From: Bdellovibrionales bacterium RIFCSPHIGHO2_01_FULL_40_29
GTDB lineage: Bacteria; Bdellovibrionota; Bdellovibrionia; Bdellovibrionales; Bdellovibrionaceae
Length of the DNA: 64,000 nucleotides
Direction: 5' to 3'
Assembly (NCBI GenBank): GCA_001771815.1
Contig: MEPU01000005.1
Span: forward strand, 2,346 to 66,345
Each line of letters opens with the position of its first letter. Position 1 is the first letter of the stretch. Positions 6,153-20,898 of the stretch are shown in pieces. The position numbers were made by a program, and so were the translations under genes. Under the pieces are notes generated by a model, which saw only the letters and a list, made by a program, of their open reading frames with translations, was not told where the DNA came from and did not search any database.

Positions 6153-6646
6153 ATATCCCCAGCCCGCATCAACATAAAGTCTTTACTGGTGGAAACGCGC
6201 AATCGTTCTTTTCTCAGCGGACGTGCTGAGATTGCTAAAATCTGACCATTCCCACTGGAATCTGTTTGCATAGATCCATTCAAATTCTGAATTTGCCATT
6301 TCAATGGCTGATTAGAAACTGGCATTAAATCATCTTCAACAACCTGATTGGATACGGTTCCTTCGGAGTCTCGACACATCAGTTTGAAATGAACCACAAC
6401 AAAATAACGATTCTGGCAATTCTCTGTTTCTGAAAAACCATAACCCACTTTGCACGTGTTAAAATATTTTTCTGAATACCCTAATGAATTAACTGATTTA
6501 TCTAATCCCAGCAAACGCTGAATCGACTGATAATCAATTGTCGGAGCCTCTGAAGTAACCGACAGATCGGGAGCTGTCTTGACTGGCATTTGTCCACAGG
6601 ACATAAGCACTAGCCCTAATGAACTCAACAGCAGAAATTTAATCAT
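6116..6646 (-). CDS. Hypothetical lipoprotein
   Basis: Lipobox LVLMSC; 4-bp coupling to the upstream gene. Confidence 0.75.
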   Translation of the reverse strand: MIKFLLLSSLGLVLMSCGQMPVKTAPDLSVTSEAPTIDYQSIQRLLGLDKSVNSLGYSEKYFNTCKVGYGFSETENCQNRYFVVVHFKLMCRDSEGTVSNQVVEDDLMPVSNQPLKWQIQNLNGSMQTDSSGNGQILAISARPLRKERLRVSTSKDFMLMRAGDIQRLIVPRTWCE

Positions 6647-7947
6647 AATGATATACCTTTAGCTTTTAGAATAGACTTGGCCTCTTGAATACCAGAGAGG
6701 CGTTCAAATTTTTCAAACTGACTACCGAAGTACATCAAATCCGTATCGGAATCACCCATTTCAAAACGAATGGTTTCAACAGCAGCGAAAATTTCTTTAT
6801 CTTTATAGCGATACTGTCGGTGTAATTCCCACAACCGTTCTAAAACTTTCACATCCCGAGACATAGGACCTCGCACACACCAAAACAGAACTTTTTTAGT
6901 ACTTAAAGATTCTGGTTGAATAGCACCGCCGGTGTACTGTTCATGCCCCGGCGTGATAACGTAATTTTCATTCAGACGACGACGATCAGAAACCGCATAA
7001 GAAACTAACGATTGAAGTTTTTCAATTCCACCCTGCTTGTACTGACCACCTGAAGAGGCCAGTAATAATTCGCGTGAATAAGGAAGTCGTCCACCCTGAC
7101 TTGAACAGTAAGCTTTAGCCATAGCATATGTATACCCTGAACCCGTGGATTGAACAGGCATTCTAATCCATTCTAAGTTCTGAGAGTCTGCAGAAGGTTC
7201 CCAATCAGGATAAATATTTTTTTGAAAGAAATCAAAAACTTGAAGAGCCAAGTTATCCAAGGCCTCGATCAATTTTCCGCGGGCTATAAACTGACGAGTC
7301 ATTCCATTTTTAACACCTTGCATGTGATAGGTTAATTGAAACTGACCAGCACCTAAACTTGAAAACGTTCCATAGGATACATAATCAATCTGTTTATACA
7401 TAGCATCCATCAGCACAGGGTTCAACTTAGCTGGATCAACAGTGCCACCAAGACCGTATGTACTTGAAAGAAGCTTAACATAAATTTTTAAAACTTGAGT
7501 GTCATTGCCTTTTGAAATTTGCAGACGTCGATCATTGTCACGAATATCATTGTTAATATACTGACGATCCAAGGCCGCTTTGAATTGGTTTTCTAGTGAC
7601 CAATCAATATTAATCACATCCGACGCTTTACGAATATCATGCGCCTGATCGAACATCATTAAAACATTCGCTAGTGGTTCCACCATCATTTCAGCGGGCA
7701 CACCCTTTTCCGCTAAATCATTTAAAGCTGTCGTCATTTCTGAAAAAAACATTTTCCGAACAGAATCGCGATCCTGTGACATCGTTTTCACATACTGTCC
7801 CATGTCACCCGCTGCAAAAAAGGGAATACTTGACCACAAGGCCGCCATTTGTTTTTTACTTTTAAACTGATCCTCATCCGAAACCTGGGGCGCTGCCAAA
7901 GTCTGAATAGAACAAACAAGCATGATAGAAAGTAAAAAATATCGCAT
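6643..7947 (-). CDS. Exported protein with C-terminal DUF1566/C-type-lectin-like module
   Basis: Signal peptide; YAMAKAYCSSQGGRLPYSRELL and FWCVR motifs. Confidence 0.65.
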   Translation of the reverse strand: MRYFLLSIMLVCSIQTLAAPQVSDEDQFKSKKQMAALWSSIPFFAAGDMGQYVKTMSQDRDSVRKMFFSEMTTALNDLAEKGVPAEMMVEPLANVLMMFDQAHDIRKASDVINIDWSLENQFKAALDRQYINNDIRDNDRRLQISKGNDTQVLKIYVKLLSSTYGLGGTVDPAKLNPVLMDAMYKQIDYVSYGTFSSLGAGQFQLTYHMQGVKNGMTRQFIARGKLIEALDNLALQVFDFFQKNIYPDWEPSADSQNLEWIRMPVQSTGSGYTYAMAKAYCSSQGGRLPYSRELLLASSGGQYKQGGIEKLQSLVSYAVSDRRRLNENYVITPGHEQYTGGAIQPESLSTKKVLFWCVRGPMSRDVKVLERLWELHRQYRYKDKEIFAAVETIRFEMGDSDTDLMYFGSQFEKFERLSGIQEAKSILKAKGISL

Positions 7948-14239: not shown

Positions 14240-14910
14240 TCTCCGTAACTTAAAAGTTTATCTCCCCAGTTTAATAATCTGGGACACTCCGTCCGTACCG
14301 AAAGAAGCGCTCCAAATCCAACGCGTTTATGAGGTTCGAGCCAATTTCCAAATGTGGAGTCATACACTTTAGCTTGTCCATCTGCCATTTCCAGGACGCA
14401 CACTTCGTGATACACGATCTTATTTCCAACCCACGGAAATACATCTCCTAATTTTCTTTTATCCACTTTATTCATGCCCTTGATCCAAAGATCTTTCCAA
14501 TGATCTGTGCAGTTTTGATTATAACTCAATAGGGCCTGGGCAGGATGTGCCGAAACACCTTGGGCTGAAAATACTTCGCGCGCCAAGGCCGCAAAAACGC
14601 CACAATCAATCGTTTTTTCTTTAATCACTTGGCACCAGGAAATAGGCCAAACCGAAGGACCCCATTTAAATAACTGGGCCAACCATGTTGGAGGCTTCAT
14701 TTGATACTGCGCCGCTGTCCACCCCTCCATCGAACGGGCGTAAGCTAAAAACCATAATCTAGCCTCTTCACAACATTCTCGTTCATGATGAATAATAGAT
14801 GAAGACGGATGCTCGATCCAGCGTTGATAAAATTCTTCGTTATCTATCAACCCTTTCAGATGAAATTTAAAATCATTTATTGGTTTTACTCTATCCGCGT
14901 CCAAAATCAT
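14224..14910 (-). CDS. Transglutaminase-like (Cys-His-Asp) protein
   Basis: IDCGVFAALAREVF, VYHEVCVLE, KVYDST order matches the papain/transglutaminase triad; overlaps both neighbours. Confidence 0.6.
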   Translation of the reverse strand: MILDADRVKPINDFKFHLKGLIDNEEFYQRWIEHPSSSIIHHERECCEEARLWFLAYARSMEGWTAAQYQMKPPTWLAQLFKWGPSVWPISWCQVIKEKTIDCGVFAALAREVFSAQGVSAHPAQALLSYNQNCTDHWKDLWIKGMNKVDKRKLGDVFPWVGNKIVYHEVCVLEMADGQAKVYDSTFGNWLEPHKRVGFGALLSVRTECPRLLNWGDKLLSYGEWVDL

Positions 14911-17188
14911 AACTCATGCTCCTCTCGTAAGCTCCTGCATCACCAAATATTAAGTAATCACCCAATTCCACAGAAGAGGGTATTTTTAAACCTTTGCTTA
15001 AAACATCATTTTCCATGCATATTCGACCCAGAACTTTTGTGTCACCCTTGTTCAAATGAGTAAAATCATCAGAGGTTTTCGATTTAAAAAATATGCGATG
15101 AGCATAGGAATCAATAAGCGGTAATTCGGCAATACAAGCATCCACAACAATCTCGGTCACTTTATTATCCTTGGTGCGACGCACATCCAACACTCGTGAA
15201 AAAACGGCTTCACCTTCTTGTGTCAATGATCGTCCAGGTTCAAAGTAAATGGTTTTAATCTGAGGTAGCGCTTCGCGGATGGTTTCTTGAATCCATTTGA
15301 AATCCATTTTTTCAAGATCTGATGGAAAAAATCCACCGCCCATATCTAAATGCCTCACGCTAACATCTGTGAGTTGCTCGACAGCTTGACACCACGTCAA
15401 CAATGAACGAACGGCTTCTTTCCATCGCTGAATTCCAATGGACCAGCTGGGCATATGAAAGTGAAAACCCAACTCTTGACCACTCAGCTTACGAACACTT
15501 TTGATGATTCCTTGGAAATTTTCAATTTTATCAACAGGAACTCCAAATCGAGAATTCAGTTTTGGCAATTGAATTCGAAATCCTAATACTTTAGACATAT
15601 TAGGAATCTGAATCACGCGATCAAATTCTTCGACGGAATCGCAAAATAGCATCCGAAGATCCGTGACAGGTTTTTGAGTCAAAGGCCAAAATTTCCCCGG
15701 ACCATTCAGAATAATTTCTTTAGCAGGAACTCCCACATTCAAGGCTCTATGAATTTCCATCTGGCTAATACATTCTGTTAAAAATCCACATGCTTTTGCA
15801 TGCCGCAAATGCTCGTCGGTCGAACTTGTTTTAACACTGTACCCAATGCGAATTTCCGGATAGCGATGTGCCGCTCGAATAGCTTTGGAGAGTGATTCAA
15901 ATCTTGAAAATGTCCAGCCTTCTAAATGCACACGAGATGGTGTCTCTCCGACAAAGCGCTCCGCTTTTTCTTTAATTTCAGAAGAGTATTGTGGAGGAAT
16001 CGACGAATCAAAATGCATATGCTCAACAGATTTTTCATCATCATGATCGTCTTCATCATCATCAAAATCATGATGACTTTCCTGACGCTGCTCCATTGTA
16101 TCTCGAAGAAATGGCATCACAGACCCAGCGCTGGGACCACCGCCTTTTCCTTTGCCTCCATCACTGGACCAAGCCGCCAAGGAAGGATCCAGAGGCATTG
16201 GCAATCCGACAGATTCTTTTGCAGGGATTTCATAAACAACGCGTGTAAAACAAGGATACAATGGCACAATTTCTACAAATGGAATTTCCAGAGCAGATGA
16301 AATCATTTTTGCTGGTAAGTTGATTCCTGAAAGGGCCGATCCAAAAATCCATGCCGGAAAACGTGGATTGCATTCAATGATCCATTTTTTGCCATCCAGA
16401 TCCCGAGTGAATTCAATCTCACCCCCTCCGGACCATCGAAGCCCTTGAATCACTTCACTCATTTGTTCAAAGAATTCAGGAGATACTGGAGTTACTCGCC
16501 CTGCCCAAGTTTTTCCTTCGGGCGTGATCAATCGCTTTTGCATGTGAACCGCAGCGACAAGTTTGCCGCGATTAGCAGAAAAACAAATGGATTCTTCATT
16601 CCCTACAATATGCTTTTGTAAAAAAAGTCGTGATGTTTTCCAATCCTTTTGCATTTGATCACGATGACGACAAAATCCATCCCAGGATGTGATTCTTTTG
16701 GCATCATGATACGGACCTTTAAGCCAGCACTGCCAAGAATTCTGCCGCATAAATGAATGCACTTCCGAGTCTGCAGAAAATGCAGAAATATAATCTGGAA
16801 CTTTAAACCCCAATTCACTGAAGGCTTTGACCGAAGGTTTGGCTGTTAATTCTAAAGCCGTACCCGTTGGTGCAAAAAGATTTTGATGATATCCAAAATT
16901 TTGAGCCAACCAGTAAACTTCCACATCAAGTCCCGATATCCAAATATTCCCCGCATCTAGAATCTCGCGAAGAAATTCTACGTGCCGAACTCGATTGATT
17001 TGCTTCCATTGAGGCAGCAGCAACGCTTCATCCACAGATTCATGATGAAGGCCCGAGCTCCCCTGCCAGTGATCGACACCAACTAAGTTTAACTCTGGAA
17101 AAGCTTTCCGAAGCGAACGAGCAATTCCAACGCCCGCACTTGGATTTTGCCCTGAATGCATTCCACTTATAAATACTTTTTTATCCAT
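14891..17188 (-). CDS. Fusion: N-terminal ATP-grasp ligase + C-terminal fold-type III PLP decarboxylase (DAP/Orn/Arg decarboxylase family)
   Basis: ATP-grasp: CWLKGPY, FLQKHIVGNEE, GEIEF, IECNPRFP. Decarboxylase: YSVKTS (PLP Lys), NGPGK, HFHMPS, LDMGGGF, EPGRSL, GRICMENDVL, AGAYERSM. Acidic His/Asp-rich linker. Confidence 0.9.
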   Translation of the reverse strand: MDKKVFISGMHSGQNPSAGVGIARSLRKAFPELNLVGVDHWQGSSGLHHESVDEALLLPQWKQINRVRHVEFLREILDAGNIWISGLDVEVYWLAQNFGYHQNLFAPTGTALELTAKPSVKAFSELGFKVPDYISAFSADSEVHSFMRQNSWQCWLKGPYHDAKRITSWDGFCRHRDQMQKDWKTSRLFLQKHIVGNEESICFSANRGKLVAAVHMQKRLITPEGKTWAGRVTPVSPEFFEQMSEVIQGLRWSGGGEIEFTRDLDGKKWIIECNPRFPAWIFGSALSGINLPAKMISSALEIPFVEIVPLYPCFTRVVYEIPAKESVGLPMPLDPSLAAWSSDGGKGKGGGPSAGSVMPFLRDTMEQRQESHHDFDDDEDDHDDEKSVEHMHFDSSIPPQYSSEIKEKAERFVGETPSRVHLEGWTFSRFESLSKAIRAAHRYPEIRIGYSVKTSSTDEHLRHAKACGFLTECISQMEIHRALNVGVPAKEIILNGPGKFWPLTQKPVTDLRMLFCDSVEEFDRVIQIPNMSKVLGFRIQLPKLNSRFGVPVDKIENFQGIIKSVRKLSGQELGFHFHMPSWSIGIQRWKEAVRSLLTWCQAVEQLTDVSVRHLDMGGGFFPSDLEKMDFKWIQETIREALPQIKTIYFEPGRSLTQEGEAVFSRVLDVRRTKDNKVTEIVVDACIAELPLIDSYAHRIFFKSKTSDDFTHLNKGDTKVLGRICMENDVLSKGLKIPSSVELGDYLIFGDAGAYERSMSYDFGRG

Positions 17189-17272: not shown

Positions 17273-19021
17273 TTAATACTGTCGTTGACAATCTAGTGCG
17301 ATCTTCAAATCCTGAGCATGCGCGGCTGCCTCGTAAAAAGAAAAATTTCCACCTTGTTCTTTTTCATCCCGCCCCCTGGGACACAAAAATTCGAAATCAT
17401 TTTCAAATTCTTCAACCACTACTTGTTTGAGAGACTCCAGATAAGTGCACGCTGTTCCTGCCCCCAACACATGACTTCCTTCACAAACACGCAGAACCAC
17501 TGGCGTAGACGACGTGGATGTTTGACATTTATACTTCACAGACCTGCCGGGAATACATTGTTGCAGACCGCCTCTCTCAGTAAACCCACAATTCCTAAGC
17601 GGCGAATCTTCATCACGCTGACACAACGAAGTCACATAGCTGCCACGCGCAGGCAAAGAAACTATCTGAGTCCCCCGATTATCTTTATTCCATTGATCTG
17701 AAAAATCACAGGCAATTCGATTTTTAACTTCACCTGTTTCTGTTCGAAATTCAGTGGGAGTAAAAGTATATTGACCTTGATGATCCAGAAGAGGTTTTCC
17801 CTCGCATAAAAATTGATCCGGATTGACTTGAAATTCCAATACCGTTTTTGCAGGACCTTTCACGTCAGTCACATCAATCCACTGACACTCAATTCCAGCA
17901 ATATAATCGTCTCCCCAGCCGGCAGCGATCCCTTGATTGTGACAGTTGTACGGATGATGAAGTGGGGTTTGTTCATTATTCGAATACCTTGATGTGCTTT
18001 CCAAACAAAAAGCCTTTTTGGAATTCAACTGATTCATTCCTTTTCCAAAAGAGAAACTCCCGTAATGACTGAAGTGAAAATGACCATGGCAGGCACTGAA
18101 CTCAAACATATTCTGTTTCACTAATTCTGAATGCGGTGTGATCACACCCAAGGCCAATGCCCGAGAACTCTGATTCACAACGGAGGCATCAAATTGCAAT
18201 AGCCGTCGCCATCCTACTCCGCCAACACACCCCTCGGCAATGGCACACGAATTTTTCGGAATATATCGATAAATAATTCGATTGTTAGCAAGCCCTTTAC
18301 TGAGCACCGAAAGATTCGGCACGAGTGAATGGGTATCACCTTGACGAAATTTTTGGGCGATCACCGGATCCCAATCGATGCGCTTAAAATTCATAACCAC
18401 CTGGACACGCCCAACATGAATCTTAAGAGCTTCAATACATGATGGTGATGGATCAAAGAAATGCTTTGTGTTTTCAGAATCCACACTGTTGGGTGGAAAA
18501 TCAGTCTGGTTCATACAAGAATATCCCGTTCGTTCAAATAGAAATTCCGGATCCACCGGCAGAGTAAAATCCTCATTCCAAATTCCTCCGATCACTGTCA
18601 AACGGGGCTCAGCCTGCTGCACAGAAGAACTGCCTGTCACCAACACGCTCGAGAAATTATACTGAACTGCAATCAGATTATGGCCATCTATTCTTATCTT
18701 CTTAGGTTTTGTCACTTGAATGTTCCATAATTCTTTTGGTGGCAAAGGCAATCGTCCCTTCTGCGGGTGAAAGGAATTGCGATAGATCAATCGATATAAA
18801 GTCATTTCGATTTGCAATTTGGCGCGTGCTTTCCAAAATGAACTGGGCTTATTTAAATAACTTTTTGCGACACGACTTTGAATGGATTTCGGAAAATCAT
18901 CAAGGCGAATTCCAACGGTACTTTGCAATTGCACTTTGATGAGGGCGCCTGATTCTGCGAATGCCTGTGGCATGCAATACACAATGCCACACAAAACTAT
19001 AATTCCATTAATAATGCTCAT
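17273..19021 (-). CDS. Lysyl oxidase (LOX) family protein, probably secreted
   Basis: FSACHGHFH copper motif, KKAFCLES (LTQ Lys), QGIAAGWGDDYIAGIECQWIDVTDV (LTQ Tyr); N-terminal signal; Cys-rich tail. Confidence 0.9.
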   Translation of the reverse strand: MSIINGIIVLCGIVYCMPQAFAESGALIKVQLQSTVGIRLDDFPKSIQSRVAKSYLNKPSSFWKARAKLQIEMTLYRLIYRNSFHPQKGRLPLPPKELWNIQVTKPKKIRIDGHNLIAVQYNFSSVLVTGSSSVQQAEPRLTVIGGIWNEDFTLPVDPEFLFERTGYSCMNQTDFPPNSVDSENTKHFFDPSPSCIEALKIHVGRVQVVMNFKRIDWDPVIAQKFRQGDTHSLVPNLSVLSKGLANNRIIYRYIPKNSCAIAEGCVGGVGWRRLLQFDASVVNQSSRALALGVITPHSELVKQNMFEFSACHGHFHFSHYGSFSFGKGMNQLNSKKAFCLESTSRYSNNEQTPLHHPYNCHNQGIAAGWGDDYIAGIECQWIDVTDVKGPAKTVLEFQVNPDQFLCEGKPLLDHQGQYTFTPTEFRTETGEVKNRIACDFSDQWNKDNRGTQIVSLPARGSYVTSLCQRDEDSPLRNCGFTERGGLQQCIPGRSVKYKCQTSTSSTPVVLRVCEGSHVLGAGTACTYLESLKQVVVEEFENDFEFLCPRGRDEKEQGGNFSFYEAAAHAQDLKIALDCQRQY

Positions 19022-19442
19022 AAATAATATACGACACCTTTCCTTGAAGTTCACTTTGAAATGACGCTTTTGCTGGTGTGATCAATGGATAATTGCTCCA
19101 GGGGTTCATCCACCATCGCCGTGATTTTAAAAAAAAATGACCTGCAGGATATTGCTGATCGGGTTTGGTAAATGCAATGGTACCCGGAGTTTCAAGTTCC
19201 ACAAAATGTCTCTCAAAATCAAAGAGCTGATACTTATACTTGTATCCCGCATTGGCTAATGCCATGACAACCTCCGGACAATAATATCCGCGGGTCCACG
19301 CATGATTTTTATTCTCGAAAAATGAAATGGCTTTTTGATAACTGAGACCGCAGCGTGCAGCAACACAGGCGATCGCACAACCCATCGGATGCTTTTGAAC
19401 AACCGATTTAAAGTCTAAAGATTGCGCTCTTTTTTTTTCCAT
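19008..19442 (-). CDS. Small papain-fold (C39-like) cysteine peptidase domain protein
   Basis: VVQKHPMGCAIACVA (Q..C), PAGHFF, WWMNPW. Confidence 0.55.
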   Translation of the reverse strand: MEKKRAQSLDFKSVVQKHPMGCAIACVAARCGLSYQKAISFFENKNHAWTRGYYCPEVVMALANAGYKYKYQLFDFERHFVELETPGTIAFTKPDQQYPAGHFFLKSRRWWMNPWSNYPLITPAKASFQSELQGKVSYIIYEHY

Positions 19443-19613
19443 GACTTCATCGATATCTAAAATAATTTTCCCACGCAAGTTCCAATAAGTCCCACATATT
19501 CGTGGCAAATTTTCCAAGCTTATATTTTTGTGAAGATTTCTTTTTAAATCATTTACTAATTGCTTCGAATAATTTTTGAAACATAAACTTTTGATTAACC
19601 AAAAGGAGATCCT

Positions 19614-19886
19614 ATGAAAAAATATTTCACATGTGTACTTATTGCAGCAAGCTTACTCGGTTCAACAAGCCATGCTGTTAGCGAAGCCACGCTTGCTAAA
19701 AATTACCAAACCTGTATGGATAATGATCCAAGTTGGTACAGCCGTTGGGGTTATTATTTAGCCTCATTCAATCGTTATGAAGCTTGGGATATTTGTCGTG
19801 GCATCTGGTCCGGCGCAGATATTGCCATGATGGGATGTCGACACAACAAGAAGTGGCTCAAAGCTGGATATCACTGCGTTTGGTAA
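19614..19886 (+). CDS. Small secreted Cys-containing protein
   Basis: AAGGAG RBS, signal peptide ending SHA, four Cys in the mature part. Confidence 0.75.
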   Translation: MKKYFTCVLIAASLLGSTSHAVSEATLAKNYQTCMDNDPSWYSRWGYYLASFNRYEAWDICRGIWSGADIAMMGCRHNKKWLKAGYHCVW

Positions 19887-20007: not shown

Positions 20008-20898
20008 ATGTTCAATCGATTTCGCAAAGATCCAAATTATCTGATGAAGTACCATCTGACAGTGGCGATGGTTCTTTTTTGCTTCAACGCTGTCATTTTG
20101 TATTTTTCACCACCTCAGTGGCCCATTCTATTGTGGTATCTTCCAGCCATTCTATTAATGACTTCGACAGAACTTAAAACTGTGATGCTAGCTGTGGCTT
20201 ATGCTTGGACTGTTAGCTTTGTTCGTGCAGACTATTCGTATCAAAGTGCCCTCGCAGTCCTTCTTGCAGTTCTTTTAACATGCCCCTTAAGTAGTTGGAT
20301 TCACTCACCATCTCACGGAAGCATGCGTCCGAGATGGCTGAATCGACCACTGGGAGAATTTATTGGCTTAGTGCAATTAACTGGCTTTCCCGACTGGACG
20401 ATTCTGCATGTTTTTCACCATCAACATCCTGACGATGCCAAACTAGACCCGCATCCACCTCTGCAAAAAAACTATTGGGAATTTGCCTTTGGCATGCGAG
20501 CCCATATTGGAAACTGCTTCATGCGCCACTACTTTAAGTATTTTGGAGAGAGTCCGCTTTCTATCAAGCGGGTTGGTTACTTTCTGAAGGCAGCCAAGTT
20601 TAATATGCTGATGAAAGTTTGTTTCTGGTATTTTGTTTTTGGTCCACAAAATTTTACTTTCTTTTTCACCACATCTATTCTTTTAAAAATGCTTCATTAC
20701 GCTTGGTTCAATTACGCTACTCACAAGATCGATAAAAATGGCGACTATATGATTAAAAATTTAGATCATTCATTCTATCGTTTAATTAATCTGATTGCCT
20801 CCGGTCTTTACTACCATGGCAATCACCACACTAATCCCCATTTTCACAATCCTAAAAATATCCCTGTAAAAAATCCTGCCCCTGCTAAAAGTGCCTAA
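20008..20898 (+). CDS. Membrane fatty acid desaturase family protein
   Basis: Three His boxes: HSPSH, HVFHH, HGNHH; transmembrane segments. Confidence 0.85.
   Translation: MFNRFRKDPNYLMKYHLTVAMVLFCFNAVILYFSPPQWPILLWYLPAILLMTSTELKTVMLAVAYAWTVSFVRADYSYQSALAVLLAVLLTCPLSSWIHSPSHGSMRPRWLNRPLGEFIGLVQLTGFPDWTILHVFHHQHPDDAKLDPHPPLQKNYWEFAFGMRAHIGNCFMRHYFKYFGESPLSIKRVGYFLKAAKFNMLMKVCFWYFVFGPQNFTFFFTTSILLKMLHYAWFNYATHKIDKNGDYMIKNLDHSFYRLINLIASGLYYHGNHHTNPHFHNPKNIPVKNPAPAKSA

Follow-up and report, generated by a model that had tools for sequence, protein, structure and literature searches.

Oxidation of lysine residues leading to cross-links, as in the animal extracellular matrix, is the defining reaction of the characterized lysyl oxidases (LOX) and LOX-like proteins (LOXL). 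Bacterial LOX have been catalogued since 2015; archaea and five bacterial phyla were found to contain the family, the core histidines and the residues that form the lysine tyrosylquinone (LTQ) cofactor being conserved and the extra upstream histidine of animal LOX being missing from the bacterial proteins (PMC4448552). A single prokaryotic enzyme, from an archaeon, has been assayed in the literature searched: this haloarchaeal LOX acts as an amine oxidase with broad specificity and sensitivity to beta-aminopropionitrile (BAPN), deaminates lysine-containing polypeptides, accepts many small amines, and is also "cryptic," with negligible native activity (PMC6452851). Here, we describe a LOX family gene in a 64,000-nucleotide stretch of DNA (hereafter, the window; contig MEPU01000005.1) from Bdellovibrionales bacterium RIFCSPHIGHO2_01_FULL_40_29. 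A preliminary description of the window had presented the product of this gene as a secreted bacterial LOX and had remarked that LOX occur patchily in prokaryotes, with unknown substrates, which is right and already published (PMC4448552, PMC6452851). No paper pairing "lysyl oxidase" with "Bdellovibrio" was found in the literature searched.

Sequence and structure modeling make it probable that the window gene encodes an exported Cu/LTQ amine oxidase, a bacterial LOX of the myxobacterial type that was acquired horizontally and for which the present gene neighborhood is secondary. The novelty lies in the host, in which we found the first full-length copy among 401 sampled Bdellovibrionota genomes, in the horizontal origin of the gene, and in its operon setting, the last two of which the preliminary description had overlooked. 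In practical terms, this is a compact, single-copy, intact LOX in a small genome, from a lineage with cultivated representatives.

Catalytic site, fold, and domain architecture

The gene and its parts are listed below; residue numbering refers throughout to the 582-aa form that starts at ATG 19021.

17273..19054, minus strand: lysyl oxidase family gene, 593 aa from GTG 19054 or 582 aa from ATG 19021, stop codon 17273..17275 (open reading frame, PF01186 match, full-length homologs)
18956..19054, minus strand: predicted Sec signal peptide MNFKERCRILFMSIINGIIVLCGIVYCMPQAFA, cleavage predicted after AFA, read by eye
18317..18955, minus strand: family-specific N-terminal alpha+beta domain (residues 23-235, ~215 aa), including the FPPNSVDSEN loop
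17642..18316, minus strand: lysyl oxidase catalytic domain (~residues 236-460; Pfam match 270-407, LOXL2 alignment 268-406, Foldseek match to 5ze3)
18074..18091, minus strand: CHGHFH, predicted disulfide cysteine and predicted copper-binding His312, His314, and His316, aligned to CHRHYH of LOXL2 and invariant in 30 homologs
18017..18019, minus strand: Lys335, predicted LTQ lysine, in NSKKAFC, aligned to the LTQ lysine of LOXL2 and invariant
17903..17905, minus strand: Tyr373, predicted LTQ tyrosine, in GWGDDY, aligned to the LTQ tyrosine of LOXL2 and invariant
17276..17641, minus strand: all-beta, cysteine-rich C-terminal domain (~residues 461-582), with 8 of the 10 tail cysteines; strands taken from the structural model, predicted local distance difference test score (pLDDT) > 88

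Residues 270-407 match PF01186 (Lysyl_oxidase) at E = 3e-17; the score, 63.4 bits, is well above the gathering threshold of 20.4. Human LOXL2 (5ZE3) was the sole match of a phmmer search against PDB sequences (E = 1.7e-8). The resulting alignment places CHGHFH on CHRHYH, the first lysine of KKAFC on the lysine of HKASFC, the tyrosine of GWGDDY on the tyrosine of CWDMY, and IECQWIDVTDV on IDCQWVDITDV. We take the aligned LOXL2 positions in 5ZE3 to be the copper ligands H626, H628, and H630 and the LTQ pair K653 and Y689. The corresponding residues of the window LOX, H312, H314, H316, K335, and Y373, are invariant in a 30-sequence alignment of full-length homologs, and the coordinates of the catalytic residues were confirmed by translation. 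Three cysteines, C311, C339, and C379, also align with LOXL2 cysteines, and one LOXL2 cysteine position is occupied by arginine in the window LOX; C259 and C265 lie outside the HMMER alignment and are paired with LOXL2 by motif alone (CAxxExC). Because this pair (CAIAEGC) and the GWRRLL motif belong to the LOX fold, the catalytic domain begins near residue 236, upstream of the Pfam match.

The AlphaFold2 model of the full-length protein, built from the 30-sequence alignment, is confident (mean pLDDT 90.4, predicted template modeling score 0.89), so that the parts of the protein are predicted to pack as one body. A Foldseek search of PDB with this model retrieved LOXL2 (5ze3; E = 2.2e-11, probability 1.00, 264 columns) and no other match at E <= 0.001. 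The complete catalytic set claimed in the preliminary description is therefore borne out by PF01186, the LOXL2 residue alignment, and the fold, as is the specific assignment of CHGHFH, the lysine of KKAFC, and the tyrosine of GDDY as counterparts of animal LOX residues. The window LOX shares the catalytic fold of LOXL2, and the copper-binding histidine triad, the LTQ lysine, and the LTQ tyrosine coincide residue by residue, at ~20% identity over the catalytic core in the Foldseek alignment. Outside the core, the two proteins differ: the SRCR domains and the animal pro-peptide of LOXL2 and animal LOX are absent from the window LOX, which has the bacterial N-terminal domain and the cysteine-rich beta C-terminal domain instead. 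The upstream histidine of animal LOX (WEWHSCH) is a serine in the window LOX, as in bacterial LOX (PMC4448552).

Membership in the topaquinone (TPQ) copper amine oxidases or the LodA-like cysteine tryptophylquinone (CTQ) oxidases was considered and rejected: a Pfam scan at E <= 0.1 gives PF01186 alone. LodA/GoxA and the TPQ copper amine oxidases are exported quinone-cofactor oxidases that convert amines to aldehydes and H2O2. They are functional analogs of the window LOX, with unrelated folds and cofactors.

Family membership, the intact catalytic set, the fold, the three-domain architecture, and the export signal are supported by the sequence and the predicted fold; cofactor formation, activity, and the class of substrate are expected from established LOX chemistry. 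By this analogy, export and disulfide formation would come first, Cu(II) on His312, His314, and His316 would then oxidize Tyr373, and Lys335 would add to the oxidized tyrosine to yield the LTQ cofactor. The mature enzyme would convert primary amines, whether peptidyl-lysine or free, to aldehydes, H2O2, and NH3. Our best guess for the substrate is a broad one, amines exposed in the envelope or extracellularly, and no single substrate is favored over all others taken together.

The N-terminal domain had been described as unrecognized and ~270 aa long. The first part of this description stands, with no Pfam or PDB match, and the domain measures ~215 aa instead. Neither this domain nor the C-terminal tail is matched by Pfam even at E <= 10. 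Modeled alone, the N-terminal domain reaches a pLDDT of 83, and its best Foldseek match in PDB has E = 0.055; a ferredoxin-like or M20-dimerization-domain identity was not accepted, these resemblances being weak. A profile of the domain, searched against 1.84 billion representatives, retrieved 358 proteins, 141 of them at E <= 1e-30. In the full-length matches, the domain occupies the N-terminus of proteins of ~600-700 aa, and the short matches look like truncated gene calls. Considering this placement and the lack of Pfam or PDB relatives, it appears to be a family-specific accessory domain, almost confined to this LOX family, and the family is thereby found to contain a domain without a solved or Pfam relative. 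The FPPNSVDSEN loop of this domain is strongly conserved. Its model quality is low in the N-terminal domain alone and it is confident in the full-length model, which suggests that the loop contacts the catalytic domain.

Near residues 190-195 (window ~18430-18450), the window LOX and its closest homolog lack another loop, of ~12-20 residues, that is kept by ~90% of the aligned members (alignment columns 305-325) and holds two cysteines and a histidine (C-x-C-H-V-T).

The cysteine-rich tail noted earlier is present, with 10 cysteines in the last 179 residues, each invariant or at least 90% conserved in the 30 homologs; it is not special, being standard in a family of more than 1000 matches. The eight conserved cysteines of the C-terminal domain are Cys467, Cys478, Cys489, Cys499, Cys513, Cys525, Cys547, and Cys578. 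Among all 18 cysteines of the mature protein, 14 are invariant in the 30-sequence alignment and the other 4 are at least 90% conserved. For the Sorangium LOX, the cysteine-rich C-terminal domain was noted in 2019 (PMC6452851).

The ATG form of the protein starts with MSIINGIIVLC and has no charged residue before the hydrophobic core. Translation from the in-frame GTG 19054 yields MNFKERCRILFMSIING and, further on, a cleavage site between AFA and ESG, that is, a conventional signal peptide whose charged n-region is exclusive to the GTG start. The hydrophobic core reaches Kyte-Doolittle values of up to 2.8, and an A-x-A site is present. Because of this conventional signal and because the N-terminus of the closest homolog (MSFKILFV) resembles the start of the GTG form, GTG 19054 is more likely than ATG 19021 to be the true start. 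The protein is predicted to be exported via Sec with a cleavable signal, leaving a mature form of ~63 kDa with a pI of ~8. A lipobox-like signal end, [A/S/G]-C, is found in 20 of the 30 aligned homologs, and the window LOX, with AFA followed by E at this site, and its closest homolog lack it; the lipobox is typical of the family, not defining.

Distribution and origin of the gene

A word-indexed search returned more than 1000 LOX homologs. The best 120 of these are colinear with the window LOX, at 42-56% identity and 84-100% query coverage (nearly all at least 93%), and all contain PF01186; the named homologs, from Nannocystaceae, Kofleriaceae, Minicystis, and Binatia, carry the NCBI label "lysyl oxidase family protein." When one genome per species was searched, relatives were found in 142 stretches, and the best 80 of the 142 belong almost entirely to Myxococcota and to the class Anaerolineae of Chloroflexota. 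The window LOX is an ordinary member of this large, already annotated bacterial family, in which the N-terminal domain and the tail are the norm, and it adds little to the catalogue of bacterial LOX.

Among known systems, myxobacterial LOX, such as that of Sorangium cellulosum (WP_012233967.1, mentioned in PMC6452851), and the NCBI entries from the four named groups are closely similar. The likeness is extensive, with full-length colinearity at 42-56% identity, the same three domains, and the same conserved cysteines. The window LOX differs in its low-GC Bdellovibrionota host, in its cleavable signal in place of the lipobox of most relatives, in the missing loop of the N-terminal domain, and in its location inside an operon, whereas its relatives are mostly solitary genes. 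HTU-LOX of Haloterrigena turkmenica resembles the window LOX in its catalytic domain with the histidine triad and LTQ residues and in its N-terminal hydrophobic signal, and its gene is also thought to have been horizontally acquired (PMC6452851). However, HTU-LOX belongs to a different, archaeal subfamily, has a short autoinhibitory stretch at its N-terminus in place of the folded ~215-aa domain, and lacks the cysteine-rich C-terminal domain; its activity data are not quantitatively transferable to the window LOX.

The host genome (2.93 Mb in 13 contigs, 40.2% GC) contains one LOX copy. Its EF-Tu shares 99% identity with that of a "Bdellovibrio sp." metagenome-assembled genome (MAG), and its identity with several Pseudobdellovibrio entries ranges from 91 to 94%. 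Judging from these identities, the host is a Bdellovibrio-like member of Bdellovibrionota, probably from the Pseudobdellovibrio group of predators, which agrees with the mention of prey in the preliminary description. None of the 36 other species of the genus has a full-length LOX; 35 show no trace of it, and one (G014) contains a sequence (L003, C36:847-1377) that corresponds to the last ~180 codons of a related LOX, from the NPDxFLCEG region on, at 49% identity, preceded by sequence that is not LOX-like. This is either a remnant or decayed copy or a free-standing cysteine-rich domain. The full-length LOX type was found in none of 400 further genomes sampled across Bdellovibrionota (1 of 401 counting the host). 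Two other Bdellovibrionota (L098 in G299 and L099 in G360) encode a different LOX subfamily in open reading frames of 787 and 404 aa, which match the window LOX in the catalytic domain only, at 32-42% identity, with the CHGHYH/CHEHYH motif, the lysine, and the GWSDIY tyrosine intact.

A maximum-likelihood tree was built from 74 sequences. The window LOX pairs with the metagenomic L012 (support 100), L014 joins this pair next (99), and all three lie inside a mostly myxococcotal clade (support 99) of 11 Myxococcota, 3 MAGs labeled "Proteobacteria," and 1 Binatia. The two closest relatives are located on low-GC contigs (43% and 37%), among flanking genes unlike those of the host genome. Because the full-length gene is absent from the 400 other genomes of the phylum and 35 of the 36 congeners lack even a trace, and because its place in the tree is among myxobacterial sequences, horizontal acquisition from a Myxococcota-dominated lineage through low-GC intermediates is the most economical explanation. 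With 43% GC, the gene is close to the genome value, which argues that the transfer was not recent. The window would thus document the transfer of a myxobacterial-type LOX into Bdellovibrionota.

The same tree includes a full-length family member (L067) on a contig binned as "Methanosarcinales archaeon," which groups with Byssovorax (Myxococcota); either the contig is a binning error or the gene was transferred into an archaeon.

The very patchy distribution and the related gene of a congener, reduced to its last ~180 codons, would also fit a gene that was carried in by horizontal transfer and now has little or no function, being poorly expressed or decaying, as would the negligible native activity of the "cryptic" archaeal LOX (PMC6452851). 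However, the reading frame is intact, the catalytic residues and the 18 mature cysteines are conserved, the composition is ameliorated, and the gene is part of an operon in which its start overlaps the preceding gene. We consider such idle cargo very unlikely.

Several points weigh against an active, exported, horizontally acquired LOX. The PF01186 match spans only positions 50-180 of the 204 in the Pfam model. The ATG start chosen by gene callers gives no charged n-region, and the signal peptide was judged by eye. The N-terminal domain might act as an autoinhibitor, a role suggested for the pro-regions of other LOX, in which case activation may be required after export. Gene and genome are similar in GC content, and the direction of transfer is read solely from the distribution and the tree. 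Finally, the sole prokaryotic LOX assayed in the literature searched is of a different, archaeal subfamily (PMC6452851).

The taxonomic spread of the family bears on the proposal, made in the preliminary description, that the enzyme is directed against prey. As a weapon, the secreted LOX would oxidize amines at the surface of the prey, releasing H2O2 and toxic aldehydes, with an effect analogous to that of LodA. LodA (marinocine) of Marinomonas is a quinone-dependent lysine oxidase with antimicrobial action. The host comes from a predatory lineage, export is predicted, and the main holders of the family, Myxococcota, are predators as well. However, 35 of the 36 congeners and the 400 other Bdellovibrionota genomes manage without this LOX, no immunity, catalase, or secretion gene neighbors it, and the family is equally common in Chloroflexota (Anaerolineae). 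The Anaerolineae, which are filamentous, are to our knowledge not predatory. Because the family is commonest in Myxococcota and in these non-predatory Chloroflexota, membership in it does not imply a prey-directed role, and we regard the weapon as improbable.

Gene neighborhood and candidate substrates

The LOX gene lies between two genes on the same strand.

19008..19517, minus strand: g169 (probable start 19442), small protein with a Cys/His motif; its stop overlaps the LOX start
14891..17188, minus strand: ATP-grasp and pyridoxal phosphate (PLP)-dependent decarboxylase fusion of the ornithine/diaminopimelate type, 765 aa (PF02784, PF00278, PF15632); first gene of the neighboring module

In the direction of the minus strand, the order is g169, LOX, an 84-nt gap, the fusion gene, and then genes for a 228-aa protein, a UT-family channel, a 284-aa exported protein, a BPL_N lipoprotein, a 319-aa exported protein, and a second BPL_N lipoprotein. 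The overlap between the g169 stop and the LOX start is 14 nt for the ATG start and 47 nt for the GTG start. In the gap between LOX and the fusion gene, there is a 9-bp hairpin that lacks a T-run, the gap does not fold more strongly than shuffled sequences (z = -0.41), and no terminator-like site was found in it. Promoter and terminator scans gave counts at chance expectation, and there were no Rfam matches in the window. Co-transcription of LOX with the neighboring module is plausible. Cys/His catalysis is possible for the g169 protein in view of two motifs, Q-x-H-x2-GC-x2-ACVA, which is invariant, and [PS]GH further on; the protein has no Pfam match and, with a four-sequence profile, no PDB match. 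Homologs of g169 adjoin the fusion gene in seven other loci, where they are always divergent from it, and only at the window locus is g169 co-directional with LOX and overlapping its start.

In one congener (G036), g169 is present and the fusion gene was not found in the genome.

An operon with an amine-generating module yields a concrete substrate hypothesis, testable and weakly supported, in which the exported LOX oxidizes the amine product of the module. The fusion enzyme would make an amine or amide, the UT-type channel would move it to the periplasm, and the BPL_N lipoproteins, which are GATase-like, may unmask a primary amine that LOX would turn into a reactive aldehyde and H2O2. The gene order is in keeping with this scheme, LOX being located on the same strand between g169 and the fusion gene, overlapping the g169 stop, and separated from the fusion gene by a gap free of terminator-like sites. 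As with LOX, export applies to several proteins of the module; a PLP decarboxylase gives a primary amine, and a prokaryotic LOX takes many small amines (PMC6452851). Furthermore, the closest homolog of the window LOX, L012 (56% identity), adjoins the same module, in which the fusion protein is 67%, the 228-aa protein 71%, and the UT channel 53% identical to the window proteins, and which also includes both BPL_N genes, g169, and g90 (described below). There, LOX is at the other end of the module, in convergent orientation, and the flanking genes are unrelated to those of the window.

The wider distribution of the module speaks against this scheme. The spread of the module was checked within Bdellovibrionota, where it was found in 8 of the 401 genomes, and the other seven lack this LOX. 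A metagenomic module locus (L096) contains no LOX in 15.6 kb, which covers 3.3 kb upstream and 10 kb downstream of the fusion gene. A metagenome scan with the single fusion protein found no loci, and one with a two-sequence alignment found two, neither with LOX. Conversely, the module was not found within 10 kb of LOX in any of 80 loci from other phyla, and LOX has unrelated neighbors in L014 and in a Nannocystaceae locus. LOX therefore does not appear to be a regular component of the module, and L012 is the one other locus that shares the linkage. Because g169 is directly beside the fusion gene and divergent from it in the seven other loci, the position of LOX between the two, with g169 turned round, is a derived, lineage-specific arrangement, that is, an insertion. 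The linkage in the window and in L012 may stem from a single event, as the two LOX are sister sequences. We consider a pathway role for LOX unlikely on balance, and slightly more doubtful still is its recruitment to complete a small-molecule pathway outside the cytoplasm, with the aldehyde and H2O2 possibly used against prey. If LOX were such a pathway step, it would be the first bacterial lysyl oxidase with a defined physiological substrate, and this would be a metabolite, not a protein.

Protein substrates bring in the other role proposed in the preliminary description, that of a cross-linker, which would oxidize lysines of surface or secreted proteins, the cell's own or those of prey, to allysines that condense into cross-links. 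This activity matches the defining reaction of the characterized LOX and LOXL, most homologs look like envelope-anchored lipoproteins, and the archaeal LOX deaminates lysine-containing polypeptides (PMC6452851). Against it, no lysine-rich repeat or collagen-like gene is located beside the window LOX, which has a cleavable signal peptide without a lipobox, and cross-linking of bacterial collagen-like proteins is considered unlikely (PMC4448552). Nor was a partner gene conserved across LOX loci: clustering of the open reading frames from 83 loci revealed no universal neighbor, and the recurrent ones are found only in Chloroflexota. Cross-linking is a possibility that we retain tentatively, short of considering it likely. 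The broader claim of a secreted amine oxidase holds as far as the export signal, identified by eye, and the LOX fold are concerned; the choice between cross-linker and weapon is one that sequence and context do not separate.

The genes around the module appear to extend the accessory region. The gene for a 434-aa protein (6646..7947) and a fatty-acid desaturase gene (20008..20895) flank LOX and the module on the two sides. Because six near-complete congeners lack both, the accessory region extends beyond LOX plus the module.

On the plus strand, g90 (19614-19886) encodes a small exported cysteine-rich protein of 90 aa, a counterpart of which, at 49% identity, adjoins g169 in L012; g90 may be another part of the island.

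Among the 83 LOX loci, 17 have a neighbor of 229 aa and 7 have one of 450 aa, both specific to Chloroflexota. The gene for the ~229-aa protein follows LOX at a median distance of 55 nt (L035, L041, L044, L048, L052, L053, L057-L059, L061, L065, L077, L079, L081, L083, L084, and L093), and this synteny is lineage specific. By eye, the N-terminus of the protein, AARAGLPVPNGG, looks like a phosphoenolpyruvate (PEP)-utilizing/ATP-grasp-like motif.

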